A stretch of DNA of 64,000 nt from Phycisphaerae bacterium (GTDB lineage Bacteria; Planctomycetota; Phycisphaerae; UBA1845; Fen-1342), in NCBI GenBank assembly GCA_050115495.1, contig JASFQK010000011.1, positions 1-64,000 of the forward strand. The letters run 5' to 3'. Within the stretch, counting starts at the first letter, position 1, and every line of letters begins with the position of its first letter. The notes beneath the pieces are model-generated. The model was not told where the DNA came from, searched no databases, and worked only from the letters and a program-made list of their open reading frames with translations. Positions 11,134-45,202 of the stretch are shown here, in pieces. A program made the translations under genes and the position numbers.

Positions 11134-12245
11134 GTGCGGCGCACCCTGGTGACGACCATTCCCGTGGCGGATTGCCGGCAACGCTGGCTTGGATTGGCGA
11201 TGATGACGGGTTCCTCCGCCTGATCGACCAGACGCTCTTGCCCGGACAGATGACGATGCGGGACTGCCGTACCGTCGAGGATGTGTATGACGCCATCCGC
11301 GTGCTGTGTGTTCGTGGGGCGCCGGCCATCGGCGTGGCGGCGGCCTTCGGCTTGTGCCTGGGCACGCGGGACGCTCGGGAGAACGACGCCGACGCGTTCC
11401 GGACCCGGGTCGCCGAAGCGGGGCGGTACCTGTGCTCGTCCCGCCCGACGGCGGTGAACCTGTCGTGGGCCATCCGCCGGGTCAGCGAGGTCGCTCACAA
11501 GGCTTTGGGCCGGGGGGCACGGGCGGCTTGGTCGGCCATGCTCGACGAGTCCCGCCGAATGGCCCAGGAGGACGCCGACGTCTGCCGCCGCATCGGCGAG
11601 ATCGGCGCCGCCCTGATCCCCGACGGTGGAGGCGTGCTGACGCACTGCAACGCGGGGGCATTGGCGACGGTGGCTTATGGGACCGCCCTGGCCCCGATGT
11701 ACGTGGCTCACGAGCAAGGCCGCCGCTTCCGCATCTTCGCCGACGAGACCCGCCCACTCCTCCAGGGCGCCCGGCTGACCGCCTTCGAGCTCAACGCCGC
11801 CGGCATCGACGTGACGGTTCTGTGCGACAACTCGGCGGCGAGCCTGATGCAGTCCGGTGCGGTACACCTGGTGATTGTGGGGGCGGACCGGATCGCGGCG
11901 AACGGCGATACGGCCAATAAAATCGGTACGTACGGCGTCGCAGTGCTCGCTCGCCATCACAACATTCCGTTCTACGTGGCGGCGCCGCGGAGCACGTTCG
12001 ACCTGACGCTGGCCACCGGGGCTGAGATCCCGATCGAGCAGCGGGGCGAGGAGGAGGTCCGCGGGCTCGCGGGCCGGGAGGTCGTTCCGCCGGGCGTGCG
12101 GTGCCACAATCCGGCGTTCGATGTGACGCCGGCAGGTCTGATAACTGGGATCGTTTGCGAGGGCGGGTTGGCGCAACCGGTTACGGAGGCGAATATCCGT
12201 CAACTCGTAGCCCCGGCCTCTTGCAATCCAGTGCGTCGCGCGTAG
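11130..12245 (+). CDS. mtnA: S-methyl-5-thioribose-1-phosphate isomerase
   Basis: VRGAPAIG, SRPTAVNL, THCNAGALAT, DETRPLLQGARLT, GADRIAANGDTANKIGTY and NPAFDVTP motifs. Confidence 0.96.
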   Translation: MSAAHPGDDHSRGGLPATLAWIGDDDGFLRLIDQTLLPGQMTMRDCRTVEDVYDAIRVLCVRGAPAIGVAAAFGLCLGTRDARENDADAFRTRVAEAGRYLCSSRPTAVNLSWAIRRVSEVAHKALGRGARAAWSAMLDESRRMAQEDADVCRRIGEIGAALIPDGGGVLTHCNAGALATVAYGTALAPMYVAHEQGRRFRIFADETRPLLQGARLTAFELNAAGIDVTVLCDNSAASLMQSGAVHLVIVGADRIAANGDTANKIGTYGVAVLARHHNIPFYVAAPRSTFDLTLATGAEIPIEQRGEEEVRGLAGREVVPPGVRCHNPAFDVTPAGLITGIVCEGGLAQPVTEANIRQLVAPASCNPVRRA

Positions 12246-12411
12246 CATTTATCCCATACTTCGCGGCGTGTCGGACGTACAAGGATCTGGCGCGGTTGTG
12301 CGTACGTCCGCGACCCGTGTCTGAACCAATGGTTCCAGGCTGCCGGTACGGGCCCCGGTCGTGATTCGTAGCCGGCCGGTCGCTGGCGCCCATTGGTGTA
12401 GGAGATGTAGG

Positions 12412-12552
12412 ATGAAACGGAGATTCTCCCTGAAGGGGGCGTTGCTGGCCCTGAGCGTTGGCACGATGCTGGCGTTCTGGGGCGGATGTCTCAATACGAC
12501 GGTGCAACGAGTGGTGGTGGCCGCCGCGGCGGACTGGCTCACCAGCCTGTAG
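12412..12552 (+). CDS. Micro-lipoprotein candidate A (46 aa)
   Basis: AGGAGA RBS; MKRRFSLKGALLALSVGTMLAFWGG|CLNTTVQRVVVAAAADWLTSL. Confidence 0.7.
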   Translation: MKRRFSLKGALLALSVGTMLAFWGGCLNTTVQRVVVAAAADWLTSL

Positions 12553-12589
12553 ACCGCCTTGATCCGCGATTAGGAACGGGAGAACGCGT

Positions 12590-12721
12590 ATGACGTCCAG
12601 GATGAAGGCCGTCCTGCTGGTTCTGAGCACGGGCGCGGTTGCCTTCGGCACCGGCGCCTGCTTCTTCCGCTGGCTCGGAGACGCGGTCGGCGACGCGATC
12701 ATCTATGGCGCCCTGGGCTAA
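12590..12721 (+). CDS. Micro-lipoprotein candidate B (43 aa; absent from the ORF track)
   Basis: GGGAGA RBS; MTSRMKAVLLVLSTGAVAFGTGA|CFFRWLGDAVGDAIIYGALG; high GC3. Confidence 0.72.
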   Translation: MTSRMKAVLLVLSTGAVAFGTGACFFRWLGDAVGDAIIYGALG

Positions 12722-12794
12722 TCACGGCCGTCACCGGCCGGAGGACCAGCGTGCCTGCGGAGTTGGGCCGCGCGTGCGGCCACAGGAGTTCGCG

Positions 12795-12962
12795 ATGATG
12801 AAACGTAAATGGTATGCCTTGGGGGCGCTGGCCATCAGCGGCAGCTTCCTCCTCCAGAACGGCTGCCTCAGTGCGTTCTGGCGGGGCCTGCGCGACGGCC
12901 CCACTGACAACCAGTGGCTGAACCTGGCCAACGACGTGGTTAACTACGTTCTGTTCACCTAG
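12795..12962 (+). CDS. Micro-lipoprotein candidate C (55 aa)
   Basis: AGGAG RBS; MMKRKWYALGALAISGSFLLQNG|CLSAFWRGLRDGPTDNQWLNLANDVVNYVLFT. Confidence 0.75.
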   Translation: MMKRKWYALGALAISGSFLLQNGCLSAFWRGLRDGPTDNQWLNLANDVVNYVLFT

Positions 12963-13052
12963 TATCGCCCCGGCAAACGTGGGCGATGCGCCGGCCCGAT
13001 CCGGCGGTGGGGAAGGGGGGCGGCCCGTTTCCGTCTCCGGTCTCCCCCGAGG

Positions 13053-13081
13053 TTGAATACCACCTGGGTTGTCCCTATACT
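13053..13081 (+). promoter_or_regulatory. Putative sigma70 promoter for ORFs D/E
   Basis: TTGAAT-17-TATACT. Confidence 0.55.
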
Positions 13082-13127
13082 GCGGCGTCGTGATATTACG
13101 GTCCCTGGTTGGACGGGAGCAGGCCTT

Positions 13128-13346
13128 ATGATGCTATCGAAACGGGTCAGGATGCTGGCCCTGCTGGCCGCGCTGAGCATTGGCACCGCCTTTAGCGTGG
13201 GCACGAACGGTTGCGCCGAGTTCTACACGACGATGACCGTCGGCTCATTCGACTTCTGTTCCGTCTTCAACTGCGAAGGCGGCAGTTACTTCAATTTCTG
13301 CAGCCCCATCCGGCTCTTCGCGGACTGCCCGCAGACCGGGGAGTAA
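13128..13346 (+). CDS. Cys-rich micro-lipoprotein candidate D (72 aa)
   Basis: GGGAG RBS; MMLSKRVRMLALLAALSIGTAFSVGTNG|C followed by a 44-aa mature part with 4 more Cys. Confidence 0.75.
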   Translation: MMLSKRVRMLALLAALSIGTAFSVGTNGCAEFYTTMTVGSFDFCSVFNCEGGSYFNFCSPIRLFADCPQTGE

Positions 13347-13376
13347 GGCGATACCTGGCGCAAGGTGGTCAAGATT

Positions 13377-13646
13377 ATGAATCGTAACAGGCTTCTCCGT
13401 CTGACCGTCGGTTTGATGGTAGGCGCGATGCTCTCCGGGTTTGGGGGCTGCTCGTTCGAGGACGTCGCCGGGTTCGTCAAGGACTACAACCCCTGCGGCA
13501 CGATCCTCGACTGCGACCCTGTCGCCTACGAGTTCTACACCTCGGGCTACCGGGGCCCGGGTGTCGACGTCGGCATCGATCCGGCTTGCACGTACCCGCC
13601 GTACTGCAACGTAACGACCCCCGGTTCGGATCCGTTTTCTCCGTAA
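13377..13646 (+). CDS. Cys/Pro-rich micro-lipoprotein candidate E (89 aa)
   Basis: MNRNRLLRLTVGLMVGAMLSGFGG|C followed by a 65-aa mature part with NPCGTILDCDP and DPACTYPPYC. Confidence 0.75.
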   Translation: MNRNRLLRLTVGLMVGAMLSGFGGCSFEDVAGFVKDYNPCGTILDCDPVAYEFYTSGYRGPGVDVGIDPACTYPPYCNVTTPGSDPFSP

Positions 13647-13790
13647 CCGCGGCGGCCGTGCACGCCCCGGGGGAATGGGGCCGACGTGCCGGCGACGCGC
13701 TGCCTGCCGCTGTGGTGGTGGGGCGCCTCGCCCGCATAGGTCGGCCCCATTTTGCGTGATGTGCGTCCCGGCCATCGGTACCATGCCGGC

Positions 13791-16700
13791 ATGTCGGGCG
13801 CTCGCCTTCCCTCATGTCGCTCACGCCGACGCGCGGATGACCGCCGTCGTCGGAGGCTGATGCTCGTATTGGCCGGGGGGCTGCTGGTCGGCTGCGCAGC
13901 CGCCAGCGCGCAGCAAGCCGCCGACGAGCCCGGCCTCACCGCGACGCTACCCACGAACAACGAGGCCCTGCTCGTCGCCGGACAGGTCAGCGATGCTATC
14001 GAGAACGGCGACTACCGCCTCGCCATCGCTCTTCTGCAACGGCTGCTCGAACACGCTCCGGAACTGGTCGTCGTGCCGCCCGGACGCACGTGCTATCCGG
14101 TATGGCGGCTGCGGGCGCGGCTCATGGATCAACTGCCGCCCGAGGCGCTGGCCATGTACCGCCAGCTCTACGATGCGGAAATTGCCGGCCGGCTCGATGA
14201 GGCCGTTCGTCGCGGCGATCGCGACGCACTGCGCGAGCTGTTCCGCATCTACCGCGGCAGCACGCTCTGGCCGCAGATCGGCGGCGAGCTCGTGGCCACG
14301 CTCCTGGACGACGGGCGCTTCGCCGAGACCGATTTCGTCATCCGCACGCTATCCGAGGCCGGGGTGGAGCTCGGTCCCGAACGCCGGGCGCAGTGGGCTG
14401 TCGCGCTGGCTCGGCTGGATCGTCCGGCTGCGGCGCAGGCCCTGCTGGCCGAAGCCCCCGAAGCCCCGGGCACGCACGCCGCGGATGAGCTGTGGCCGGC
14501 GGTGCGCGCGTATGTCGATTCGCTGTCGGCTGCGCCGCCGAACGCGGCTGATTTCGCGCCGGCCTGGGCGGCGGGGGCGGTGTGGGGCAGCGTGCTTACG
14601 CCCGCCGGTCCCGGCGAGCTGTTCGAAGACGATGAGGCCGTCGCCGACGCGGTTGAGACGGCGTTCGGCACGCGCGTCGTTCCGCGTCATCAACCGGTGC
14701 TTGATGGCCAGACGCTCGTCGTGCGTCTGCGTGGCACGGTGTGGGCGTACGATGCGCTGACGTTGACGCCGCGCTGGCGCGTGCGCGAGTTCGTGCCGAC
14801 CACGTGGGGAGCGAGCGACGTCGCCTGGCCGCCGTCGGTCGTCGCCAACCCGCTCGACGCCGAGGAGGCGAGCCGTCCGGTCAGCGCCGACGCCCTCGTT
14901 CTGTTAACCAACAGCCTGCGTCATGAGATCTCCACGGGTTTCGGGCAGGTTTTCACGGTCGAGTCGCTGCCGCTCGCCGGCGGCGAGACCGGCGAATGGA
15001 GCGCGCAGCGGGCGGGATTGCTCGACAGCCTGCCCCTGGCCAACGAGCTCGTCGCTCGCGAGTTGCTCACCGGCGACCTGTGCTGGCGCACCGGCGGCGA
15101 CCCGGACGCGCCGCTGGCCGGTGTGGCTTTCCAATGCGCGCCGCTGGCCCTCGATGACCGGCTGTACGTTCCGTTTCAGCGCGGCAGCGATCTCGTGCTC
15201 GGGGTGCTCGAGCCCGTCGCCGGTCAGGTGCTCGCCGAAATCCCGGTCGTCGGTCCGCCGACGCATTTCGGTGTGCGCGGCGGGCGTTGTCTCCTCACCG
15301 CCGACGAGACCAGTATCTACGTGTGCACGGGGAACGGCGTGGTGGCCGCGTTCGACCGCCGCGATCTGGGCTGGCAGTGGGCAGCGACGTATCCGAGCAC
15401 GCTCGCCTCGTGGCGCCCCGCCGACTGGTGGTCACCGCGGCAGACGCCCGGCGACCACGCGGCGCAACCGCCGGTGCTCGTGGACGACCTGCTCGTGCTG
15501 GCTCCGGCCGATTGCCCGTACATCTTCGCCCTCGATCGGTTGGATGGCCGGCAACGTTGGCGCCGCGAGCGCGGTCGACACGATCTGCTGCTCGGTGCGC
15601 TGCACGCCGGTACCGACACCGCCGGCCTTATCGTCGCCAGCGATACGCTCACGTGTCTGGATGCGGCCGACGGTGCTGCTGTGCGGTGGCGTTCGGTGCC
15701 ACTGGCGCTTACCGGCCGGCCCGCAGTACGCGACGTTCGCGGCGAGACGCCCTGTCTGTTCGCGCCGACGGCGCACGGAGTCGTTGTGCTCGACGGCCGC
15801 AACGGCAAGGTGCTCGGCGGTTCGCCCGAGGTCGAGACGCAGTACGCCGTGGGCCAGACCGAGCCTTCCGACGTAGTCCGCCCGGCACCGACGGCCAACC
15901 TGTTGTGCTCGTCTGCCGCAGTGTTCGCCGTGTCGCCGAGCGGCATCGCCAAGTATGCAGACATCGACCGCACGCGGGCGGCGGCGGAGGCGCTGCTGGC
16001 CACCGCCCCGGTCGGCAGCGACGCGGATCGCGCCCGTCTCACGCTCGCCTGGACCGAACGTCTGGCCGGCGGCTACGAGCAGGCCCTCGCCGCCCTGGAA
16101 GCGCTCAACCCCGCCGAGCAGTCGCTGGCGGTCGCACGCGACCATCTACTCACCGACGTTCTCGTGGCCATCGCGGCGCACTCCGCCGGCGGCGACGAAC
16201 GCCTGCGGTGGCTCCGCCGAGCGGCACAGCCGGAAGCGGGCGATGCGGCGAACTCGGTGCGTTTGGCGCTGATGATCGGGCGTGCGCTTGAAGAGAAGGG
16301 GGCCTGGATCGAGGCCGCCGGTCACTATGCCGAACTGCTGCGCCTGGCGGATGCGGAGCCGCTGGCCGTTGCCGGCGAACCTCGTCGCGAAGCCGCCGGC
16401 TGGCTCCAGGCGGTCGCCCGGCTGCGTGAGCTGCGTTCGCGGCTCACCGCGGAGCAGACTGCCGCACTCATCGACGGCTGGGCCGAACGCGAGTCCATTG
16501 AGTTTCTTCAGCGGTTGCGGCTCGTCTTCGGTACGCCGGATCCGGCGGCGGATGAACCCGGGCATGGCCGCCTGCTGGAGCCATCGCCGGCGGCCGCTAC
16601 GTTGGATCGGGCGATCGCGCTGCGGGGCAGTTCGGCCGTCGCTGCCGAGATTCTGATCAGCTACCTCGCCGATGCGGACAATCCCGAGCTCAGCGACGAG

Positions 16701-18314
16701 GAACGCCGCGAGCTGCACCTGTGCCGTTGGGAAACGCACGTTGCGCTCGGCCTGGCGGAGCAGGCTCGCGCCGACCAGCGCACGTGGTACGAGGATTGGG
16801 GATCGCTGATGCCGCGTCCGGCGAACGAAGGCGATGAAGCGACCGACGAACTCGCCCAGCGTGTGCGGCGTATCGAGCGCGCGCAGACGCAGCTTGACGA
16901 GGAAGTCGCGGCGCCGCTCGACGCGGGCTCGTCGGAGGATGTCGCGTCGATCGGGCGCTATCGCTGGCGTCTGCCCGGTTGCGAATTGCTCATCGATCAG
17001 CGCCACCCGGCGCGCTTGCGGTGTGGCTGGTTGCCTGTCCGCAACCTCGAACAGCCGGTCATCGCCGTGCACAGCGCCGCCCGCGGCCGCCAGTGGCACC
17101 ACACGGTCGACGCCCTTCAGTCCGGACCCGGGGCTCGCGCCGCCCTCACTGACGCCGCCGAGGCCGTCCTCTTCGGCGACGATCACAGTCAGTCCGGCGA
17201 GGCGGCGATGCATCGCCACGTCTGGCCCGCGGCGATCTACGGCCACCTGGCGGCGATTCCGGCCCGCCTCGGCCGCGCTCTCATCTGCATTGGACTCGGG
17301 CCCGAACGCAGCGGCGGGCAACGCCTGTGGGAGTGCCCGCTGCCGGAATGGCTGGACGTGCCGCGCGACCTCGCTCGCACGGCCGTCGCCGGCCCGCTCG
17401 GCGTGCACCTCGTCCGCCGGGGCGATCGCGTCGCGCTCGTCGGCTGGCTCGACGGGCACATCTGGTGGCAGCGCGACCTGCCCGGCATGAACATCGACGC
17501 CATCTACCTCGCCGGCTCGCGGCTCGTCGTCGCTGGCCGGAACGACACGGTGATCTCGGTCGACGCGATGCAGGGTGACGACCTGCGCCTGCTGCCGGCC
17601 GGTTGGGGCACGCCCCGCGCGGTGGCCGTCGCCGGCGACGTCGTCATCGTGTGGGGCGACGAGCGCATGGCGGGGTTCGACCCGGCCACGTTCGAGTGTT
17701 TGTGGACGCGGCCCTCCTGGAATGTCGGAAGCTGGAGCGCCGTCGAAGGCGCCCCGTGGCTCGCCTGCCGTGAACGGGGGAGCGAACGCTGGTTGCTGTT
17801 GAACGTGCGCAGCGGCCAACCGGTGTTCGAGGCCGGCCTCGGCAACCTGGGCCGCGATGCTATTCTCGCTCTGGATCGCGGTCAGCTCTTCGCCGCCGGC
17901 GTTGCCGACCAGTCGCTCGACGCGCCGCCGGAGGCCGAGCCCGCTGAGCCCGTGGGGTACGTTCGGCTGGCGGCGTTCGATCCGGCGGACGGACGCTGCC
18001 GCTGGCGAAGCGAATTGCCGACTGCGGCTCCCGTAAACGTCACGCAACTGCTCGCCCATCCCGACGTGATCCCGCTGCTCGAAGCCGGCGGCGTCTACGA
18101 GTACTGGAGCGGCGTGAACTACCGCAGCCTGGCCCTGCGGCTGCTGGACAAGCGCAGCGGTACAATGGGACCCGCGGTCGCGGTGAGCGAGCACTTCACC
18201 GATGGTGACGGCACGTGCGGCGCGTACCTGCTCGCCATCCCGGGCCGCATTATCGTGCAGGCCAACGGAACGCTGGCTGCTTACGGCGTTCCCGCCGCGA
18301 GGACCGAGCCGTGA
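13791..18314 (+). CDS. Large exported protein with PQQ/BamB-like beta-propeller repeats and TPR-like helical segments
   Basis: Signal-like N-terminus; repeated xDxxxG...W blades (ALDRLDGRQRW, CLDAADGAAVRW, AFDPADGRCRW); alternating helical regions. Start uncertain (13791 or 13860). Confidence 0.8.
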   Translation: MSGARLPSCRSRRRADDRRRRRLMLVLAGGLLVGCAAASAQQAADEPGLTATLPTNNEALLVAGQVSDAIENGDYRLAIALLQRLLEHAPELVVVPPGRTCYPVWRLRARLMDQLPPEALAMYRQLYDAEIAGRLDEAVRRGDRDALRELFRIYRGSTLWPQIGGELVATLLDDGRFAETDFVIRTLSEAGVELGPERRAQWAVALARLDRPAAAQALLAEAPEAPGTHAADELWPAVRAYVDSLSAAPPNAADFAPAWAAGAVWGSVLTPAGPGELFEDDEAVADAVETAFGTRVVPRHQPVLDGQTLVVRLRGTVWAYDALTLTPRWRVREFVPTTWGASDVAWPPSVVANPLDAEEASRPVSADALVLLTNSLRHEISTGFGQVFTVESLPLAGGETGEWSAQRAGLLDSLPLANELVARELLTGDLCWRTGGDPDAPLAGVAFQCAPLALDDRLYVPFQRGSDLVLGVLEPVAGQVLAEIPVVGPPTHFGVRGGRCLLTADETSIYVCTGNGVVAAFDRRDLGWQWAATYPSTLASWRPADWWSPRQTPGDHAAQPPVLVDDLLVLAPADCPYIFALDRLDGRQRWRRERGRHDLLLGALHAGTDTAGLIVASDTLTCLDAADGAAVRWRSVPLALTGRPAVRDVRGETPCLFAPTAHGVVVLDGRNGKVLGGSPEVETQYAVGQTEPSDVVRPAPTANLLCSSAAVFAVSPSGIAKYADIDRTRAAAEALLATAPVGSDADRARLTLAWTERLAGGYEQALAALEALNPAEQSLAVARDHLLTDVLVAIAAHSAGGDERLRWLRRAAQPEAGDAANSVRLALMIGRALEEKGAWIEAAGHYAELLRLADAEPLAVAGEPRREAAGWLQAVARLRELRSRLTAEQTAALIDGWAERESIEFLQRLRLVFGTPDPAADEPGHGRLLEPSPAAATLDRAIALRGSSAVAAEILISYLADADNPELSDEERRELHLCRWETHVALGLAEQARADQRTWYEDWGSLMPRPANEGDEATDELAQRVRRIERAQTQLDEEVAAPLDAGSSEDVASIGRYRWRLPGCELLIDQRHPARLRCGWLPVRNLEQPVIAVHSAARGRQWHHTVDALQSGPGARAALTDAAEAVLFGDDHSQSGEAAMHRHVWPAAIYGHLAAIPARLGRALICIGLGPERSGGQRLWECPLPEWLDVPRDLARTAVAGPLGVHLVRRGDRVALVGWLDGHIWWQRDLPGMNIDAIYLAGSRLVVAGRNDTVISVDAMQGDDLRLLPAGWGTPRAVAVAGDVVIVWGDERMAGFDPATFECLWTRPSWNVGSWSAVEGAPWLACRERGSERWLLLNVRSGQPVFEAGLGNLGRDAILALDRGQLFAAGVADQSLDAPPEAEPAEPVGYVRLAAFDPADGRCRWRSELPTAAPVNVTQLLAHPDVIPLLEAGGVYEYWSGVNYRSLALRLLDKRSGTMGPAVAVSEHFTDGDGTCGAYLLAIPGRIIVQANGTLAAYGVPAARTEP

Positions 18315-19405
18315 CGGCTGTCCGCTCGCTGACGCTGGTGCTCGTCGTGCTGGTGGCGGGGCTGCTGCCGGCGGCGCGGAGCCAGGATGTGGAGCCGCCG
18401 ACACCGGTCGCGGCTACGCCCGCGCTCGCTCCACCGGAGATCACGCCGCGCATCCGTGAGTCCATCGACCGCGGCCTCGCTTACCTCGCCGCGCAGCAGA
18501 ACCGCGACGGAAGCTGGCGCAGCGACGGGGCCACCGGTTCGTACCCGACGGCCATGACCGCTCTGGCTGGCCTGGCCCTGCTCGCCGGCGGCAACACGCC
18601 GACCGAGGGTGCCCAGGCGCCGCACGTCAGCCGGGCTTTGACGTACCTGCTGGCCAGCGCCCGCCGCGACGGCCTGATCGCCCAGCTCGAAGAGGAAGCA
18701 CACTGCATGCACGGCCACGGCTACGCCATGCTCTTCCTCGCCCAGTGCTATGGCATGGAGGAGGATCCGCGGCGGCGGGCGCAGGTGCGCGTCGTATTGC
18801 AGCGGGCGGTGGCGCTCACCGCACGCAGTCAGAGTGCCGCCGGCGGCTGGCTGTACACGCCCGATGCGGGTGGCGACGAGGGTTCGGTCACAGTGACGCA
18901 GGTACAGGCGCTGCGCGCCTGCCGCAACGTCGGCATCGCGGTGCCGAAGCGGGTCATCGACCAGGCGATGGCCTACCTCGAACGCTCGACGAACGACGAC
19001 GGCGGCATTCGTTACCAGGTCAGCGATCGCGGGCCGAGCCGGCCGGCGATCACGGCGGCGGCGGTTGCCTGCTGGTACAACGCCGGCCTGTATGAGGACC
19101 CGCACGTGCAGCAGGCCCTCACGTTTCTGCGGCCGCGCCTCACGCCGCGCCGCAGCGACGTGACCAACAGCTTCGGTCACTATTTCTACGGGCATCTGTA
19201 CATGGCGCAGGTCATGTACATCGGCGGCACGACCACGCCGGACGATTGGCGGACGTACTACACGGACATCGCCGACGTCATGCTCGAAAGCCAGTCCGCC
19301 GACGGTTCGTGGGAGGGCGACATGGTCGGCCCGGTTTACGGCACGTCGGTGGCGTTGATTATCTTGCAGTTGCCGTATAAGAATCTGCCGATCATGCAGC
19401 GGTGA
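18311..19405 (+). CDS. Exported prenyltransferase/squalene-cyclase-repeat (alpha6-alpha6 barrel) protein
   Basis: GTGA overlap with the upstream gene; signal peptide; QW-like repeats [16 protein letters not shown] and SQSADGSW; no DXDD motif seen. Confidence 0.85.
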
Positions 19406-19428
19406 GTGCCGGTCCAGCGAGGAGTGCC

Positions 19429-20598
19429 ATGGACAGTCCACGCGACGAATCCGAACAGGCCCCAATGCCGCCGGCGCCCGAGGCTGGCGATGATGTGCAG
19501 GCGACCGAGCGGCTGCGAACGGCCTATGCCGCGGTTCGGCAGGAGCTGGCCCGCGTCATCGTCGGCCAGGAGGAGGTGCTCGAGCAGCTTCTCATCGCCT
19601 TGTTCGCCCGCGGGCACGTGATTCTCGAAGGCGTGCCCGGCTTGGCGAAGACGCTGATGATCAGCTCGCTGGCCCGCTGCCTCGACCTCGGCTTTCACCG
19701 CATCCAGTTCACGCCCGATCTCATGCCTTCGGACATCACCGGCACGGAGGTGATCCAGGAGGACCGCCGAACCGGACAGCGTTCGTTCCGTTTTCTGCCG
19801 GGGCCAGTGTTCACGAACGTGCTGCTCGCCGACGAGATCAACCGTACGCCGCCGAAGACGCAGGCAGCGCTGCTCGAAGCCATGCAGGAGCGGCAGGTGA
19901 GTGCGGGCGGTGTGCGGCACGCGCTCGATCCGCCATTCTTCGTGCTAGCCACGCAGAACCCGATCGAGCAGGAGGGTACGTACCCGCTGCCCGAGGCGCA
20001 GCAGGATCGCTTCATGTTCAAGGTCCTGGTGGAATACCCGGGTTACGAGGACGAGTATCTGATCGCCGAGCGGGCGGCGGCGGCCGAACCGCCGGAGTTG
20101 CGGGCTGTTCTGACGCGGCCGGAAATCCTGCACTTGCAGGATGTCGTTCGCCGGGTGCCGGTTGCCCCGAGTGTCATTCACTACGCGTTGACGATCGTCC
20201 GTCGGACGCGGCCCAGTGCCGCCGCTGGCCGAAATGGTGAGCAGTCCGGCGGTGATGGTGGCGACGGCGGTGATGGCGGCAAGGATTTCGAGCGTTCCTC
20301 GGCTACGCCGCTGATCGATCGCCTGGTGACGTTCGGCGCCGGCCCGCGGGCGGTGCAGTTTCTGTTGTTGGGGGCGAAGGCGCGGGCGGTGCTGCACGGG
20401 CGGAATCACGTGGCGGTCGAGGACGTGCGGGCCCTGGCGCCGCCGGTGTTGCGGCATCGGCTCATCACGAACTACGCCGCCGACGCGGAGGGCTACGACA
20501 CCGATCGCATCATCGGGCACGTGCTGGCCTCGCTGCCCGCCGACGGGCTCGACGCCGCCGGCCAATCGGCCCTTCGCCGCGTGTTGCAGCAGGGCTGA
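19429..20598 (+). CDS. moxR: MoxR-family AAA+ ATPase
   Basis: GVPGLAKT Walker [60 protein letters not shown]. Confidence 0.96.
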
Positions 20599-20658
20599 GC
20601 CGGGGGCCGGCCGGACCGGCACTCGGCGTAACCGCGTCGCCGTCGCAGGCGGTAGGGC

Positions 20659-21591
20659 ATGGAATACCTGAAACCCGAGGTGATCGCCGGCTTGCGGGGG
20701 CTCGACCTGCGGGCTCGCACGGTCGTTTCGGGCGTGTTGTCCGGGATGCACCGCAGCGTCTGGCGCGGGCAGAGCGTCGAGTTCGCCCAGCATCGCCCGT
20801 ACGTCGCTGGCGACGACATCCGCCACGTCGATTGGCGCCTGTTCGGCCGCAAGGACCGCTTCTTCATCAAGCAGTACGAGGAGGAGACGAACCTCCGCTG
20901 TCACATCGTGCTCGACGTCAGCCGCTCGATGGCGTACGGCAGCGGCCCGCTGAGCAAGTTCGAGTATGGTGCGTGTCTCGCTGCGGCGCTCGCGTACCTG
21001 CTGGTCCGGCAGAATGACGCCGTCGGCATGATCACGTTTGACCACGCCGTGCGGCGGAAGCTGCCCGATGCGACCGGGCGGGCGCAGCTTGCGAATGTCG
21101 TGGCGCTGTTGGAAGACAGCCAGCCGGATGAGGAGACGGACGTCGGGGCGGTGTTTCACCAGATCGCCGAGGAGTTGCGCCGGCGGTCGCTGGTCGTGCT
21201 GATCTCTGATTTGCTGGCTTCGTCGGCGGATGTCGCCTCCGGCCTTGAACACATCTGCCTGTCGGGCCATGAACTCGTTGTGCTGCACGTGCTGGACGAG
21301 CATGAGTGGACGTTTCCGTTTGTCGAGAACACGCAGTTCGAGGGGCTCGAAGAGGGGGTGCGGTTGCTGGCTGATCCGCAGGCATTGCGGGCCAGCTATC
21401 TCGCGGCGCTGCGGCGATTCTCGGCTCATGTGCGCGGCATCTGTTTGAAGCATCGGGCCGACTATGTGCCGGTCAGCACGGGCGATCCGCTTGACGCCGT
21501 TCTCAGCGGCTACCTTAGCCGGCGACGCGGGACCGCGCCACGTTGGGCTACGCCGGCGGGCTCGCCTCGTGGCGGGGAGGACGGCGGATGA
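20659..21591 (+). CDS. DUF58 (vWA-like) protein
   Basis: GMHRS..RGQSVEFAQHRPYVAGDDIRHVDW, KQYEEETN, LDVSRSM and ISDL motifs. Confidence 0.93.
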   Translation: MEYLKPEVIAGLRGLDLRARTVVSGVLSGMHRSVWRGQSVEFAQHRPYVAGDDIRHVDWRLFGRKDRFFIKQYEEETNLRCHIVLDVSRSMAYGSGPLSKFEYGACLAAALAYLLVRQNDAVGMITFDHAVRRKLPDATGRAQLANVVALLEDSQPDEETDVGAVFHQIAEELRRRSLVVLISDLLASSADVASGLEHICLSGHELVVLHVLDEHEWTFPFVENTQFEGLEEGVRLLADPQALRASYLAALRRFSAHVRGICLKHRADYVPVSTGDPLDAVLSGYLSRRRGTAPRWATPAGSPRGGEDGG

Positions 21592-23864
21592 GTGCCTTCC
21601 CGCCGTTGCTCGCGTTTGGGTTCGTTCATCCGGCGTTGCTCGGCGGACTGGGTTTGGCCGTCGCGCCGATCATCATCCATTGGCTTTCCCGCCGGCGGGC
21701 CCGACATCGGCCGTGGGCGGCGATGACGTGGCTGCTCGAAGCTGAGCGGCAGACACGCCGGCGGGTGCTCCTTGAGCAGTGGCTGCTCGTGGCGCTGCGT
21801 TGCCTCGCCCTGGCGCTGCTCGCGTTGCTGATCGCGAGGCCGTTTCTGCGACCGGGGGTGGTCGCGTCGCTCGTCGGTGCCGGCGGGCAGGTCACGCGCG
21901 TGGTCATACTCGACAACTCGGCGAGCCTGGCGTTTCGCAGCGGGGCGGAGGTTGAACTGACGCGTTTGCAGACCGCGGCCGACCGCCTGCTCACGTGGTT
22001 CCACGACCAGGCGCCGCAGGACCATGTCGTCGTTTGTCTGACGTCCGGTGGCGGGGAGATGCTTTTCGATGGCACGCTGGGTTCGGACGCGGCGCTGTCC
22101 GACGTGCGGACGCGGCTGCGCAACTGCGCGCCGACCAGCACGCCTGCTCGGCCGCGCCGTGTGCTGACTAGCGTTGCCGACCATCTTCGCGAAGGCGGCG
22201 TAACCCGCGCCGACGTCTACGTGTTCTCCGACCTGCAGCGCACTGACTGGACGCCGGCTGGTCAGTCTGTCTTCGAGCCGCTGCGCGAGCTTGCCCAGGC
22301 GGGTGCCGCCGAAGGGGCCGCCACGCCGGCGACGCAGATCCGCTGCGTGCTCGTTGCTTCGGGTGGTCCGCGGCGCGACAACGTGGCGCTGACCGACCTG
22401 CGGCTCGAACGGGCCCAGACGATCGCGGGTATTCCGGCCGTCGTGCGGGCCCAGGTGGCCAACTACGGCGTGCGGCCCGTCCGCGACCTCGTCGTGCAGG
22501 TCGATCTCGATGGCACGCCGCTGCCGGCCGTCCCTGCGGAGCCGATCGACGCCGGCGCCCTGGCCGACGTGCTCTTCGAGGTCACGTTCCCCGACGAGGG
22601 TTACCATCAACTCACGCTCACGGTCGGCCCGGTCGATTCGTTTCGGCTCGACGACGTTCGCCGGCTGGCCGTGTTCGTCAAGCCGTCGCTGCCCGTGCTG
22701 GTTGTCGACGGGGCGCCGGCGGCCGATCCGCACAACGACGAGGTCTTCCTGCTACGGACCGCACTGGCGCCGTCCGGCCCGCTCTCGTCGGGCCTGCGTG
22801 TCGACGTCGTCGATCCCGATGAACTGGCCGCGGCCGAGTTGGAAAGCTACGACGCCGTGCTGCTGTGCAATCTCGCGCCGCCCGGTGCGGGACTGATCGG
22901 GCAGTTGCAGCGCTACGTGCGACGTGGCGGCGGGCTCGCCTTCTTCCTCGGCAGCGAGGTGGGCGACGCGTCGGCGTACAACCGGGCGTTCTACGCCGAC
23001 GGCACGGGCCTGCTGCCGCTGCCACTCGAACGGCTGGGTTCGCCGACCGGTCAAGCCGCCGGCGTCGGACTGATTCGCGCCACGCCGCATCCGGTGACGA
23101 CTGCGTTTCCCGCGTCGGCCGACACGCTTTCCGAATACGTCCACTTCTGGCGCTACTTCCGCTGTCGCACCGACGCCGAGTCGCTGGAACGCGATCCCGC
23201 GCCGGCGATCCTCGCCCACTACACCGACGACGAGCAGACGCCCGCGCTGATCGAACGCCCGCACGGCCGCGGCCGTGTGCTGCTGTTCACGTCGAGCGTC
23301 GATCTCGATTGGAACGACTGGGCCCGCTCGCCCGACGGCAGCTACGTCGTCACACTGCTCGAAACGGTGCAGTACATCGCCCGGCGGCACAATCATCCGG
23401 GCAGCCTCGCGGCGGGGGAGGTGCTTGCCGTGCCGGTCGAACCGGACGTGTACGAGCCGAGTGCGCTGTACAAGCCGCCGGCGTATCCCGATGAGCCGGC
23501 CGTGCCGTCTGCCCCGCCGCAACGTGGCCCTGCTGGCGAGGACATCGTCGTGCTGCCCGGTCCGGAGGCGCAGCGGCTGGGCACGTACATGGTTGAACTC
23601 ACGACGCGCTCGGGGCGCCTCGAAACACGTCCGCTTTGTGTGAATCTCGCCCTGGCCGAGTCGGACTTGGCGGCGGCGGCGCCCGCTGATCTGGACGCCG
23701 CGCTGGCCGGGTTGCCGTACGAGCTGTTCGCCGCGGCGACGGACTTCCTCCGCGGCGCGGCGCAGACCCGCCGGGAGCTGTGGCCGCTGGCGTTGTTATC
23801 GGTGGTGCTCGTGCTGACGTTGGAGCAGACGCTGGCCTGGTACTTCGGCAAGGCCGGCCGCTGA
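21588..23864 (+). CDS. BatA N-terminal/vWA domain membrane protein
   Basis: PIIIHWLSRRR...WAAM BatA motif; MIDAS DNSAS and FSDLQ; Ig-like and GATase-like regions; C-terminal ELW...LEQ.LA TM segment. Confidence 0.88.
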   Translation: MSAFPPLLAFGFVHPALLGGLGLAVAPIIIHWLSRRRARHRPWAAMTWLLEAERQTRRRVLLEQWLLVALRCLALALLALLIARPFLRPGVVASLVGAGGQVTRVVILDNSASLAFRSGAEVELTRLQTAADRLLTWFHDQAPQDHVVVCLTSGGGEMLFDGTLGSDAALSDVRTRLRNCAPTSTPARPRRVLTSVADHLREGGVTRADVYVFSDLQRTDWTPAGQSVFEPLRELAQAGAAEGAATPATQIRCVLVASGGPRRDNVALTDLRLERAQTIAGIPAVVRAQVANYGVRPVRDLVVQVDLDGTPLPAVPAEPIDAGALADVLFEVTFPDEGYHQLTLTVGPVDSFRLDDVRRLAVFVKPSLPVLVVDGAPAADPHNDEVFLLRTALAPSGPLSSGLRVDVVDPDELAAAELESYDAVLLCNLAPPGAGLIGQLQRYVRRGGGLAFFLGSEVGDASAYNRAFYADGTGLLPLPLERLGSPTGQAAGVGLIRATPHPVTTAFPASADTLSEYVHFWRYFRCRTDAESLERDPAPAILAHYTDDEQTPALIERPHGRGRVLLFTSSVDLDWNDWARSPDGSYVVTLLETVQYIARRHNHPGSLAAGEVLAVPVEPDVYEPSALYKPPAYPDEPAVPSAPPQRGPAGEDIVVLPGPEAQRLGTYMVELTTRSGRLETRPLCVNLALAESDLAAAAPADLDAALAGLPYELFAAATDFLRGAAQTRRELWPLALLSVVLVLTLEQTLAWYFGKAGR

Positions 23865-23897
23865 GCCTGTTGTTCGAGTTCTTGTGGAGCGCAGCGC

Positions 23898-26336
23898 ATG
23901 CTGCCGCAGATGCTGAGCACATTGCCGATCGGCCTCGCCCAGGTCACGCACCAGCAGGTGTTTGAATGGGCCGGTCTGCCCGCCGGCTGGGCAAGGGCGC
24001 TGCTATTTGGCGTCGTGGCGGCGCTGGGCGTGCTGGCGATGGTGCTCTATCGCGCCGAGTATCGCAGCGGGGCGAGTGCGAGGCTGCGCACGCTGCTGGC
24101 CGTGCTGCGCTGCATCGTCATTATCGCGCTGGCCGTCGTCTGGCTCGAACCCGTTCTCGTCACGTATGCCCATCGTTATGTTGAGGCCCGCGTCGCCGTG
24201 CTCGCCGACGTATCGGCCAGCATGTCCGTCGCCGATCCGGGTGAGCGCGTTACTGACGGTGCCGGCGAGATTCGCGCCGAGGCCGTACGCCGGCGGTTGT
24301 ACGCCGACGATGCCCGCTGGCTTCGCCGACTGCGCGAGCACAATGCGGTTGATCTCTACGTCTTCGGCGGCGAGACGACGCGCGTGCCGCTGCCCTGGTC
24401 GACCGAGGTGTCCGCCAGCCGTCCCGCCGTCGACGCGTTCGCTCCGATTCAGCCGCGCACCGATTTCGGCCAGACGCTGGCCACCGTCCTCGACGACGTC
24501 GGTGACGGTCCCAGTGCCGGCGTGATCCTCTTCTCCGACGGCGGCCTCAACCAGGGGCTCAGCCTCGACGAGACGGTCGCGCTCGCCCGCCGACTCGCCG
24601 GCCCCGTGTACTGCGTCGGTGTGGGTGCGCTCGACGAACCGCCCAACCTGCGCATCACCGGCCTGCTCGCGCCGGCGACCGTGCCGCAGGGTGACCCGTT
24701 CGAGATCCGCGTCGATCTCGTCGGCGCCGGCATGAGCGAGACGCCGATCGAGGTCGAGCTCGTTGCTCGGCGCACTTCGCCTGGCGGCACCGCCACCGAT
24801 ACCGCTGAGACGCGCCCCGCGCAGAAGTCCGCCCGCGTCGGCGACGACCAGCCGCCGGCCACGGTGCTCTTCGAGGTGACGCCGCCGGCGCCGGGGCAGT
24901 ACACGTACCGTGCTCGCGTCCTTCCGCCGCCCGACTTGGTCGAAGCGCTCACGGATGACAACGCCCGCGAAGCATCGGTGCTCGTGCTCGACGAACTGCT
25001 GCGCGTGCTGATCGTCGCCGGTGGGCCGACGTACGAGTACCGCTACGTCACGCGGCTGCTCGAACGCGATCGCAGCATCGACGTGAGTTGCTGGCTCCAG
25101 TCGGCGGACGAACAGGCTCTCCGTGACGGCAACACGATCCTCGAAGCACTGCCGCGCGAGCCGGCGGCGCTCTTCGCCTACGACGCCATTCTGCTGCTCG
25201 ATCCCGATCCGGAAGAGCTCGATGCCGCCTGGGCCCTTACTCTTCGCCGATGCGTGGACGAGATGGGTGGGGGGGTACTGCTGGAGGCGGGGCCGCAGTA
25301 CACCGCGCGTTTTTTGCGCGACCCGCGGCTCGACGAGTTCGTCGCCATTCTCCCCGTCGTGCCCGATCCCGACGTCGAAGTCCGGCTGAACACGCTGGGC
25401 ACGTACCGCACGTCGCCGCTGAGCGTTCAGCCGCCCGAATCCGTCGCCGGCCACCCGCTCGTCGCGCTCGACGCCGAAGCTTCGACGAGCCTTCAGCTCT
25501 GGCAGGCGCTCGGCGGAACGTGGTGGCATCTGCCGGTGCTGCGGGCGAAGCCGGTGGCAACCGTGCTGCTGGAGCGCGGCGGTGACTTGCCCACTGTCGC
25601 CGAACAGGGCGACGTGGTGATGGCGGCCCAGCCGGTCGGTCCTGGTCGGGCGGTGTTCCTGGGGATGGACAGCACGTGGCGTTGGCGCGGGCCGGCGGAG
25701 CCGCTGTTCAACCGCTTCTGGATCCAGCTTGTCCGGTACCTCGCGCAATCCCGCCGACAGCAGGCCAGCCGCTTCGGCACGCTGACGCTCGACCGCGAGT
25801 CGTTCAGCGTCGGCGATTATGTGCGTGTCGAGGCGCGTGTGCTCGATCGGGCATACGCACCATGGCCCGAGCCGGAGGTTCGCGCCGAACTCGAATGGGC
25901 GGATGGAACGACGGAACCGTGCATTCTCAAGGCGATTGCCGGCCGTGACGGTTGGTTTGCCGGCCGGTTGCTGCTGAGCCGCGAGGGGCCCGCCGAGCTG
26001 CGCGTCCCGCTGCCGACCACGGGGGGAAGCGAGCCGGCCCCTGCGTCGCCGGAGTTCCTGCGCGAGCGTATCCGCGTCTTGCGGCCGGATGTTGAAATGG
26101 TCTCGTTGCGGCAGCGGCGCGACGTGCTCAGCGCCCTGGCCGTGCAGACGGGCGGCGCCTACGTGGCGCTCTCCGACGTCGATTCGCTGCCCGACCGCAT
26201 TCCGAACGCCGGCCAGCGCCAACCGCCGCAACGTCTTTCTGCCACGCCGCTGTGGGACCGGACCTGGGTGCTCGGCGTCATTGCGGCGTTGCTATGTACA
26301 GAATGGGCGCTACGGCGCCGGTATCACCTGCTGTAA
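23898..26336 (+). CDS. vWA plus glutamine-amidotransferase-like membrane protein
   Basis: N-terminal TM segments; DVSASM, TDF and FSDG motifs; GRAVFLGMDSTWRWR...RFWIQLVRYL; C-terminal PLWD...EWALRRRY. Confidence 0.85.
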   Translation: MLPQMLSTLPIGLAQVTHQQVFEWAGLPAGWARALLFGVVAALGVLAMVLYRAEYRSGASARLRTLLAVLRCIVIIALAVVWLEPVLVTYAHRYVEARVAVLADVSASMSVADPGERVTDGAGEIRAEAVRRRLYADDARWLRRLREHNAVDLYVFGGETTRVPLPWSTEVSASRPAVDAFAPIQPRTDFGQTLATVLDDVGDGPSAGVILFSDGGLNQGLSLDETVALARRLAGPVYCVGVGALDEPPNLRITGLLAPATVPQGDPFEIRVDLVGAGMSETPIEVELVARRTSPGGTATDTAETRPAQKSARVGDDQPPATVLFEVTPPAPGQYTYRARVLPPPDLVEALTDDNAREASVLVLDELLRVLIVAGGPTYEYRYVTRLLERDRSIDVSCWLQSADEQALRDGNTILEALPREPAALFAYDAILLLDPDPEELDAAWALTLRRCVDEMGGGVLLEAGPQYTARFLRDPRLDEFVAILPVVPDPDVEVRLNTLGTYRTSPLSVQPPESVAGHPLVALDAEASTSLQLWQALGGTWWHLPVLRAKPVATVLLERGGDLPTVAEQGDVVMAAQPVGPGRAVFLGMDSTWRWRGPAEPLFNRFWIQLVRYLAQSRRQQASRFGTLTLDRESFSVGDYVRVEARVLDRAYAPWPEPEVRAELEWADGTTEPCILKAIAGRDGWFAGRLLLSREGPAELRVPLPTTGGSEPAPASPEFLRERIRVLRPDVEMVSLRQRRDVLSALAVQTGGAYVALSDVDSLPDRIPNAGQRQPPQRLSATPLWDRTWVLGVIAALLCTEWALRRRYHLL

Positions 26337-31552: not shown

Positions 31553-32788
31553 ATGAGGTGGCGAGCTTCTTTGCTGGTGTGGGTGGTGATCGTGCTGGTC
31601 ATTGGGCCGGCGTGGTGCGGCGCGCAGGCGCCGACGCTGACCGTCACCGGGCTGGACGGTCGCACGAGCAGCGGTGAGTTGCTGCAAGTCGTTCCGGAGA
31701 TCATCGTTCGCACGAGCGAGGGGCCGGCGTCGATTCCGTGGTCTGAAGTGCTCAATGTCGAGGTTGGCGGCGAGGGACCGCAGTCGCGGCCGGCGACGAG
31801 CGCCGCGCCGCTGTGGTTCGAATTGGCCGACGGCTCGTCGTTTCCGGGCGAGGTGTCGGCGGCGGATGAGGGCGGGTTTCTCGTTCGCTGGGGTGAGCGG
31901 ACGTGCCGGCTGGATACGTCGATGATTCGGCTGATTCGGGCGATGGTTGCACCGCCGGCGGCGGAAGCTCGGTTCCGCGAGGCATTGAGCGAGGCCCGGC
32001 AGCGGAGCGGCGACAACGGGGCCGATCGGCCGGCGGCGCTCGACGATCTCGCCGTCGTGGCTCGTGACGAGGACGTGCTCGCTCTCCGCGGCCGCGTGCA
32101 GCAGATCGAGCCGAACGCGGTACGTTTTGAGTGGAATGGGCGGGTCGTGCATTTGCCGTGGGCGCGTGTCGCCGGACTGCTGTTCGCGCGTCCGTCGCCG
32201 CGGTCGGCGTCGTGCATCGTGCGGCTGCACAGTGGCGAGGCGTTCGCCGGCCGCGTGGTCGGTGGCGGGGCGGATGGGCTGGTGTTGCGCTCCGCAATGT
32301 TCGAAGACCTGCCGCTGACGTGGGTGGCGATCGCCGGCGTCGACTGCCGTAGCGAGCGGCTGGTGTTCCTGTCCGAGTTGACACCGGCGCGGTACGAGTT
32401 CGAGCCGCTGTTCGACAAACGGTGGGAGTTCGCGGCGGACCGCACGCTCAGCGGCCGGCGGATCCGGCTCGGCGGGCAGACGTACGCCCGCGGTCTGACG
32501 CTGCACAGCGGAGCGCGGCTCACGTATCGCCTCGGCGGCCAGTTTGCCCAGTTCGCCGCTCTGGCCGGCATTGCGGATGAGATGTCGCAGCGCGGCTGCG
32601 CGACGTTGCGCGTCGTGGGCGACGGCCAGGTGTTGTGGGAAGCGACCGGCGTCCGCGGCGGGCAGCCGCCGCGCGAGGTCGTCGTTTCGGTAAGCGGCGT
32701 CGATGAACTGACGTTGATCGTCGAATACGGCGAAGAACTCGACCTGTCCGACGAGGTCGTCTGGGCGCTGGCGCGGGTGATTCGATGA
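31553..32788 (+). CDS. Exported protein with a C-terminal NPCBM/NEW2 domain
   Basis: IRLGGQTYARGLTLHS, FAALAGIAD, VVGDGQVLW and VSGVDELTLIVEYG...D...WA motifs. Confidence 0.85.
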   Translation: MRWRASLLVWVVIVLVIGPAWCGAQAPTLTVTGLDGRTSSGELLQVVPEIIVRTSEGPASIPWSEVLNVEVGGEGPQSRPATSAAPLWFELADGSSFPGEVSAADEGGFLVRWGERTCRLDTSMIRLIRAMVAPPAAEARFREALSEARQRSGDNGADRPAALDDLAVVARDEDVLALRGRVQQIEPNAVRFEWNGRVVHLPWARVAGLLFARPSPRSASCIVRLHSGEAFAGRVVGGGADGLVLRSAMFEDLPLTWVAIAGVDCRSERLVFLSELTPARYEFEPLFDKRWEFAADRTLSGRRIRLGGQTYARGLTLHSGARLTYRLGGQFAQFAALAGIADEMSQRGCATLRVVGDGQVLWEATGVRGGQPPREVVVSVSGVDELTLIVEYGEELDLSDEVVWALARVIR

Positions 32789-45128: not shown

Positions 45129-45157
45129 TTCTGCTCCATTGGGTGAGCGGTGAGGAG

Positions 45158-45190
45158 AAGCCCGCGCATCTTCGCGCGGGCTTTCTTTTT
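45158..45190 (+). terminator. Rho-independent terminator
   Basis: aagcccgcgc/gcgcgggctt stem followed by tcttttt. Confidence 0.8.
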
Positions 45191-45202
45191 GCGCCGAGGC
45201 GG

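Follow-up and report, generated by a model that had tools for sequence, protein, structure and literature searches.

Does the region that follows the gene mtnA in the genome of a Phycisphaerae bacterium hold a cassette of genuine micro-protein genes and, if it does, what kind of proteins do they encode? The window, that is, the whole stretch of DNA that was analysed, comprises 64,000 nucleotides (nt) of contig JASFQK010000011.1 (GenBank assembly GCA_050115495.1), and the cassette occupies positions 12412 to 13646 on its + strand. A preliminary description, made from the sequence alone, had listed five open reading frames (ORFs) of 46, 43, 55, 72 and 89 amino acids (aa) here and had interpreted them as tandem micro-lipoprotein genes; all five were confirmed at these positions and are designated A, B, C, D and E in the 5' to 3' direction, with coordinates that include the stop codon. 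The explanation favoured here, with moderate confidence, is that A-E are exported and most likely lipid-anchored mini-proteins that have a core envelope role in their order, with D-E as the constant pair and A-B-C as accessory genes. They belong to no described family in Pfam, NCBIfam or the open-access literature.

The first gene, A (12412..12552; 12412-12549 without the stop codon), encodes a 46-aa product with a leader at residues 1-25 followed by Cys26 (12487-12489), which would leave a mature part of 21 aa. The consensus of its family, as given by the aligner, is CLxATxQRILVAVAFD, and residues G25, C26, L27, Q32 and R33 are invariant in the 16 aligned orthologues. Gene B (12590..12721; 12590-12718 without the stop codon), whose 43-aa product falls below the 60-aa default limit of the ORF listing, has its leader Cys at position 24 (12659-12661) and an invariant GD..(G/A)D motif within a predicted mature part of 20 aa. 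The 55-aa product of gene C (12795..12962; 12795-12959 without the stop codon) also has its leader Cys at position 24 (12864-12866), ahead of an aromatic-rich mature part of 32 aa. Gene D (13128..13346; 13128-13343 without the stop codon) encodes 72 aa with Cys29 (13212-13214) at the start of a predicted mature part of 44 aa that contains the further residues C44, C49, C58 and C67. The final gene, E (13377..13646; 13377-13643 without the stop codon), encodes 89 aa with Cys25 (13449-13451) and a predicted mature part of 65 aa, which features the motifs NPCGTILxCDP and DPxCTxPPxC. GGAG-type Shine-Dalgarno (SD) sites are located 6-11 nt 5' of A, B, C and D, in agreement with the clear SD sequences reported for these four genes, and E is preceded by a weaker AAGGTGG. 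The translations also bear out the two classes of product that had been distinguished, since the mature parts of A, B and C contain no further Cys and those of D and E contain four more each, the latter two genes being preceded by a promoter of their own.

The simplest negative answer would be that A-E are frames arising by chance in GC-rich DNA between genes, or part of a non-coding RNA. The ORFs are short, with A and B below 50 aa, and long antisense ORFs overlie all five. The GC content at third codon positions (GC3) is nevertheless 0.82-0.91 in A-E (0.83 in A, 0.91 in B and 0.85 in C) versus 0.83 in the neighbouring mtnA and 0.57-0.69 in the antisense ORFs, so that a coding-type GC3 is seen in the + strand frames only. 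The start codons, the SD sites and the family-specific motifs of the mature parts are kept across the alignments, order-wide, and no Rfam match was found. The ratio of non-synonymous to synonymous substitution rates (dN/dS) is below 1 in every computable pair (0.01-0.57), with synonymous sites saturated in most of them; in the three pairs free of saturation the ratio is 0.32 (D), 0.28 (E) and 0.105 (E). By these measures A-E are under purifying selection. The cross-genome comparisons of frames, GC3 and dN/dS, together with the Rfam search, refute the chance-frame and non-coding RNA readings, to which we give practically no credence.

Single-sequence searches of relatives found E in 31/40 and D in 28/40 (32/41 and 29/41 with the own genome included), and 23 of the 24 genomes of the window's own family (f1) had D/E matches. 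The matches to A, B and C in these searches are syntenic on the D/E contigs, in the order A-B-C-D-E. All five genes were present in order in 13/35 neighbourhoods of 7-12 kb searched by tblastn, and in 32/66 loci from named public metagenome-assembled genomes (MAGs) searched with family hidden Markov models (HMMs); the two counts are not independent, since the two sets overlap in genomes. The MAG locus search used a 13-row alignment as its query. E is present in 66/66 of these loci and D lies beside it in 64/66, both misses falling at contig ends. All of the named records derive from metagenome bins; their labels are Planctomycetota, Phycisphaerae, Phycisphaerales or 'Planctomycetales', and in one case Planctomycetia. 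No paralogue of D or E was found elsewhere in the own 5.97-Mb genome. The conservation, copy number, dN/dS and synteny of the genes, by which the preliminary description had asked for its proposal to be judged, came out in favour of genuine genes. One of the named records, the 1.8-kb contig L093 with an E homologue, is filed under the purple sulfur bacterium Thiodictyon and probably reflects a binning error rather than a transfer.

Transcripts of the cassette are found in public RNA data. A contig of the wetland metatranscriptome X2 (12271-12974) spans the whole of A, B and C, and a second contig of X2 (13108-13671) spans the whole of D and E, both with no mismatch. RNA contigs of X5 and X7 cover D and E as well, and the contigs of the three studies start at 13091, 13108 and 13123. 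The interval 12975-13090 is not bridged by any RNA contig, the only RNA cover of mtnA is one 46-nt diverged piece (X5), and 13680-14617 has none at all. The runs X3, X4, X6 and X8 account for small shares, and no habitat is assigned on their basis. A DNA run that is possibly the source of this assembly covers the whole region evenly, and the uncovered flanks in the RNA data argue against DNA carry-over in the RNA contigs. The pattern fits two units, A-B-C and D-E, with the predicted starts described below; the contigs as such cannot prove a single transcript. The ordered orthologues in relatives, the coding-type GC3 and the RNA cover place the array far beyond chance, and it is close to certain that A-E are real and expressed genes.

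The D-E unit is preceded by the promoter sequence TTGAAT-17-TATACT (13053..13081, + strand), one site of this kind being found against 0.5 expected from shuffles. The pattern TTGnnn-16/18-TATA(C/T/G)T is present in all 15 C-D spacers scanned (the window and 14 relatives), where it is the top-scoring site in 14 and tied for top in L051. The -10 element reads TATACT in 12 of these spacers, TATATT in 1 and TATAGT in 2, and the sites end 25-67 nt 5' of the D start. The separate D-E promoter that had been proposed is present as a sequence pattern and is conserved, and the RNA contigs begin just downstream of it. For A-B-C, the best match in the 260 nt 5' of A is a predicted promoter-like site, TTGCAA-16-TAGCAT (12221..12248, + strand), whose -10 hexamer overlaps the mtnA stop codon. 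Among 16 relatives scanned, most share a similar site, TTGnAA-16-TAnACT, which when present lies 151-198 nt 5' of A. The 5' leader of the A-B-C transcript also contains a GGCGCGGT box (12289..12296, + strand), which is invariant in 16/16 f1 loci with A, 117-180 nt 5' of the A start, and was not found in 3/3 loci of other families. By eye, the box lies about 13-18 nt past the conserved -10 element, for example in L055:7665-7842(-) and L066:7564-7733(-). It could serve as an operator or as an RNA element of the 5' leader; the leader gave no Rfam match and no consensus fold with RNAalifold, and in 7/8 cases the fold of an individual sequence did not improve on its shuffles. At the 3' end of the A-B-C unit, ViennaRNA predicts a hairpin after the C stop (12962..12989, + strand), within which the X2 contig ends (12974). 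A hairpin with a T-run after C was also noted by eye in several relatives, and this hairpin is likely the 3' end of the A-B-C transcript. Downstream of E, a long terminator-like hairpin followed by a U-run (13673..13757, + strand; fold of 13644-13760, -73 kcal/mol) begins just beyond the end of the second X2 contig (13671) and presumably closes the D-E unit.

If the five genes are real, what do their common N-termini signify? Each product has Lys or Arg early, an uncharged stretch and a Gly placed 8-10 residues ahead of the Cys; the leaders end in WGG-C, TGA-C, QNG-C, TNG-C and FGG-C for A to E respectively. The basic n-region and the hydrophobic, uncharged h-region recur in all aligned orthologues (16, 14, 17, 30 and 33 rows for A to E), and the position before the Cys is G, A or S in 99/109 members. 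The shared leader of the preliminary description, with its basic N-terminus, hydrophobic core, Gly, small-residue end and Cys, was thus seen in all five families. The leader Cys, whose lack of conservation had been named as a ground for refutation, is found in every aligned member of A-E, one B row being misaligned yet having the Cys. It is invariant (C25) in a 123-row alignment of E and occurs in more than 90% of an 87-row alignment of D built from HMM envelopes. Many members of D (25/30) and E (19/33) have a Gln 4-6 residues ahead of the Cys; the window's own A, B, D and E have lost it, and C retains it. When an 18-residue HMM of the leader was run over all ORFs of the genome, B, A and C ranked first with E-values near 1. 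One further candidate was returned, which gives no sign of a wider leader regulon. This sole extra match, a small ORF on the minus strand of contig C14 (oriented offsets 44940-45288) with a Gly/Thr-rich leader and a TG-Cys end, is not significant.

The leader resembles those of Sec-exported lipoproteins cleaved by signal peptidase II (SPII), which share the basic n-region, hydrophobic stretch, small residue and invariant Cys. It differs from them in its c-region, where Gln, Asn, Pro or Tyr often stand at -2 to -6 and Leu is rare at -3, and in being Gly/Thr-rich in all five families, a feature that the genome's other lipoprotein-like leaders did not show. In particular, the sequence FQ before the Cys occurs in none of 332 lipoprotein-like leaders of large ORFs in the own genome, a comparison set that is crude and noisy.

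Several observations weigh against the lipoprotein reading, beginning with these same features. The lipobox rule [LVI][ASTVI][GAS]C, in its PROSITE PS51257-like form, is matched by only 29/110 members, most failures being due to Q, N, P or Y in positions -2 through -4; together with the frequent Gln of D and E, this is in keeping with the non-canonical lipobox that had been proposed. Leu occupies -3 in 16/109 members versus 112/332 of the lipoprotein-like leaders of the genome. The uncharged stretch from the last Lys or Arg to the Cys measures, by eye, 17-20 residues in A, D and E, which is the length of a membrane anchor, and the conserved Gly, Thr and Gln of the leader could form a helix-packing motif instead of a signal. 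LolA (PF03548) was not found in the own genome, which is 92% complete; given that level of completeness and the divergence of the phylum, this negative result says little. On the broader envelope role, the AlphaFold models are of modest confidence (predicted local distance difference test scores of 72.6 for E and 69.4 for D), contig depth in the RNA data cannot rank expression, and nothing in the analyses points to a specific function.

The leader features could be accommodated if A-E were uncleaved single-pass membrane micro-proteins, oriented with the N-terminus in and the C-terminus out, in which transmembrane helices pack through conserved Gly, Thr and Gln, either with one another or with a larger complex, and the Cys sits at the membrane boundary. 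The length of the uncharged stretch, the conservation of the Gly and the Gln at fixed distances from the Cys, the poor fit to the lipobox rule and the lack of such leaders on other proteins of the genome are all in keeping with this. A boundary Cys that never varies is needed by Lgt and not by a helix anchor, and the preceding position is almost always a small residue, as noted above. In all five families the leader is less conserved (identity 0.30-0.46) than the mature part (0.43-0.58). Cys parity also fails if the leader Cys stays unpaired, with five Cys each in D and E, and pairing between chains gives odd totals of 13 for A-E and 11 for D-E-F sets, F being a sixth micropeptide described below. 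We regard uncleaved anchors as an unlikely alternative.

The pattern of the remaining Cys residues is informative here. All five Cys of D are invariant in 30/30 rows, and C25, C71 and C77 of E are invariant in 33/33. C40 and C46 of E are lost jointly in 5/33 rows, which is the behaviour of a disulfide pair. In the 123-row alignment C77 is invariant like C25, and C71 is present in more than 90% of members. With the leader Cys subtracted, the counts are even in every family (0 in A, B and C, 4 in D, and 4 or 2 in E), which fits a lipidated first Cys. Among the E proteins, those without the Cys pair of the first loop and with the second pair kept are from L046, L060, L062 and L063, which belong to the window's genus, and from the distant L072. 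In family f2, D-like proteins (L149-L154) carry a longer insert and only two Cys beyond that of the leader, and the E proteins of f2 and f7 carry long Gly-rich C-terminal tails.

The own genome encodes the enzymes that lipidation would require, with Lgt (PF01790, 126.8 bits), LspA (PF01252, 97.2 bits) and Lnt (TIGR00546, 232.6 bits summed) all above cut-offs. It also contains two ORFs that are VKOR-thioredoxin fusions, which could form the disulfides of D and E. The three enzymes, the fusions and the Cys pattern favour true lipoproteins with an atypical leader. The invariance of the leader Cys, the even remaining counts and the joint loss of C40 and C46 likewise favour a lipidated Cys over a helix anchor, and lipidation of this residue is judged likely. 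As to the proposed cassette of lipid-anchored micropeptides, its small exported proteins with an invariant leader Cys, in a host that has the pathway enzymes, stood up to analysis, and the lipid anchor itself is retained as a prediction.

The five products are not equally distinct from one another. Comparison of the D and E profiles by hhalign gave a probability of 95% (E 3.5e-8); the 56 aligned columns reach from the leader to include the first Cys loop, and on this basis the two genes are paralogues. Among A, B and C, and between these three and D, similarity is confined to the leader (hhalign 74-83%) and may reflect composition; once the leaders were removed, A, B and C showed no relation to one another (hhalign below 1%, with very short profiles). 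The statement that the mature peptides are unrelated consequently holds for A, B and C and not for the D/E pair. The AlphaFold models of E and D agree in showing a leader helix, a helix after the Cys (residues 29-40 in D), a short Cys loop and an ill-defined tail. A Foldseek search of the PDB with the E model returned nothing (best E 7), and the ESM Atlas yielded only Planctomycetota clusters without names.

No family was assigned to any of A-E by Pfam (E up to 1) or NCBIfam, and no description of the families was found in the open-access literature; the possibility that the ORFs already belonged to a characterised family, raised in the preliminary description, found no match in either library. 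A match of A to DUF7322 (E 0.0087; 16 bits, cut-off 27) was sub-threshold and was dismissed. The expectation that annotation would overlook these genes was correct with respect to the family libraries and went too far with respect to gene calling, as NCBI records list E homologues as 'hypothetical protein'.

How widely is the cassette distributed? The E profile matches 63/63 sampled genomes of the order (f1 22/22, f2 15/15, f7 22/22, f6 2/2 and f5 2/2) and three of five further genomes (f3 2/2, f4 1/1), for a total of 66/68; the two order genomes without a match are bins of 420 and 800 contigs. Within the class and outside the order, it matches 4/337 genomes (f20 3/7, f23 1/28 and 0/302 others). 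A search of 1.84 billion cluster representatives returned 100 matches at E<=0.001, nearly all of them 69-183 aa long and stand-alone, with an N-terminal leader. This exhaustive profile search superseded a word-based protein search for E homologues that gave 6 matches only. One 647-aa match, P0103, is a repeat protein in which a short Gly/Pro stretch was matched, and it was judged spurious by eye. D precedes E in all loci inspected, those of f2, f7 and f20 included.

The distribution of the upstream genes is narrower. A profile of mature C matches 36/151 order genomes, with a single match per positive genome; there are matches in f1 (28/32), f3 (3/7), f4 (2/2) and f11 (2/2), and none in f2, f6 and f7 (32 genomes each). 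C was not found in four f1 genomes that carry D-E. The A-B-C unit occurs in f1, f3, f4 and f11, and it can be separated from D-E: in G014, mtnA-A-B-C and D-E are on separate contigs, and in G168 and G203 the two units are 87 kb and 410 kb apart. D-E would be the constant pair, core to the order, with A-B-C as an accessory module that belongs to one sub-clade. Where A-C are lacking, a family often has a sixth micropeptide with leader and Cys, F, located 3' of E; examples are L075:6086-6247(+), L077:6722-6883(+), L155:6408-6596(+), L158:5793-5960(-), L160:6347-6538(+) and L072:6454-6609(+). The mature part of F is hydrophobic and approximately 25-30 aa in length. One f1 genome without A-C has two small ORFs with an LFQxG-Cys leader just 5' of mtnA (L052:2748-2915(-) and L052:3260-3409(+)), which may replace A-C.

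Small lipoprotein genes in tandem are also known from the entericidins, which were reportedly the subject of a study by Bishop in 1998. Peptides of conflict or signalling are usually patchy in distribution and fast-changing. Another answer to the question of function would be that A-E are precursors of exported modified peptides, whether pheromones, products similar to the DAG-RiPPs, or lytic or antimicrobial lipopeptides similar to the entericidins. The short peptides and the common leader type would suit such precursors. Entericidins A and B of Proteobacteria are tandem lipoproteins of 41-53 aa with a proposed lytic role (PMC7296081). The entericidin pair is the nearest architectural analogue of A-C, with tandem, very small lipoprotein genes and mature parts of 20-30 residues. 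The cassette differs from it in having five genes in two units, two of them predicted to be disulfide-rich, and in being kept order-wide in single copy, and no Pfam Entericidin match was obtained for A-E in a scan to E 1. The entericidins combine a lytic lipoprotein with an antidote lipoprotein, and no sign of such a toxin/antidote pair was seen in the cassette.

The DAG-RiPPs have small precursors with SPII-type lipoprotein signals that are modified by MNIO enzymes and carry a conserved CxxxxC motif (PMC13056109). D and E share the small SPII-type precursor and the conserved Cys motifs, and the C-x4-C of D and C-x5-C of E can be compared with this CxxxxC. The MNIO family (PF05114), by contrast, was not found in the own genome and is present in only 2/41 relatives, on which grounds the MNIO/DAG-RiPP reading was rejected. 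A Pfam scan of the neighbours in the window and in 14 other-family loci detected no peptide-modifying enzyme in the conserved neighbourhood, and no peptidase-containing exporter or immunity-type gene; the sole transporter seen was a ZnuA-type metal ABC system at one locus, and mtnA is the only recurrent neighbour. The distribution of A-E, a single-copy, order-wide and syntenic set under purifying selection, speaks against a role in conflict, and the antimicrobial or signalling function that had been offered as an option fits it poorly; the membrane-shaping option offered beside them is a conjecture. Precursors of modified peptides are accordingly regarded as quite improbable.

The lipid-anchored envelope proteins favoured here would be produced as follows. 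A-E would be Sec-exported mini-proteins of new families, encoded in two neighbouring transcription units of one Phycisphaerae order. Lgt would add diacylglycerol to the invariant Cys of each precursor, LspA would remove the leader just before that Cys, and Lnt would acylate the new N-terminus. A, B and C would then become lipid-anchored peptides of 16-34 residues at the membrane surface. D and E would become lipoproteins of 44-65 residues, each with a helix after the anchor and loops stabilised by two disulfides, for which the VKOR-thioredoxin system would be responsible; in E, C40 would be paired with C46 and C71 with C77. Acting together, D and E may form a small component of the envelope that serves in its structure or biogenesis. 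An envelope role of this kind is held in diderm bacteria by small lipoproteins such as the Braun lipoprotein Lpp, LptM, BamE and SlyB/Pcp, which have structural or assembly functions there. A-E differ from these in showing no sequence match to them in Pfam or NCBIfam and, for the E model, no fold match. Unlike Lpp, they also lack the C-terminal Lys used in peptidoglycan linkage (their last residues are L, G, T, E and P, respectively), and at their length mature A and B could not reach across a periplasm.

The gene upstream of the cassette, mtnA (11130-12245), is assigned to the TIGR00512 equivalog with 422 bits against a cut-off of 279 and encodes methylthioribose-1-phosphate isomerase. It lies directly 5' of the cassette in f1, f2, f4, f7, f9, f10 and f11, as seen in the window and at L149, L150, L152, L154, L158, L159, L070, L071, L073 and L075, and it is the sole recurrent neighbour, the genes on both outer flanks being variable. 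The RNA data suggest that mtnA and the cassette have separate promoters. In f5 and f6 the D-E pair is located elsewhere, and in f5 it adjoins type II/IV secretion ATPase genes. Downstream of the cassette (13857-26336) the window encodes a 1485-aa PQQ/BamB-like repeat ORF with an LLVGC motif at its N-terminus, a prenyltransferase-like ORF, MoxR, DUF58 and BatA/VWA. This PQQ-MoxR set is kept 3' of the cassette in many f1 genomes and not in the genomes of f4-f7 and f9-f11 examined. The array had been placed between mtnA and the MoxR cluster; the upstream border is direct, and the MoxR cluster is bordered only loosely, since the PQQ-repeat and prenyltransferase-like ORFs intervene. Further downstream, at 32785-36532, the window contains three tandem HtrA-like genes with Trypsin_2 and PDZ domains.

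To our knowledge, little has been established of how the Planctomycetota, and the Phycisphaerae especially, build and hold their diderm envelope, and we know of no detectable counterparts in this phylum for most of the small envelope lipoproteins of Proteobacteria. The cassette offers five unannotated micro-protein families, two of which (D and E) are present in nearly every genome of the order, with transcripts in samples from wetland and rhizosphere. It illustrates how conserved proteins of fewer than 60 aa fall outside family libraries, and its atypical yet conserved leader provides a useful test case for lipoprotein predictors. A bolder and rather doubtful proposal is that D-E, with A-C or F as accessory components, form a new lipid-anchored envelope complex essential to the order, with the conserved leader, Gly/Thr...Gln-x-Gly-x-Cys, marking a dedicated route of processing or sorting instead of being a generic signal. 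Under this proposal the adjacency to mtnA, which is kept in most, not all, families as the outer flanks change, would reflect shared regulation. If it is true, the D-E complex would be a lineage-specific counterpart of the proteobacterial small lipoproteins that serve in outer-membrane tethering or assembly. A-E are in any case concrete candidates for lineage-specific envelope components, with a testable chemistry in the form of a predicted lipid anchor and two disulfides.

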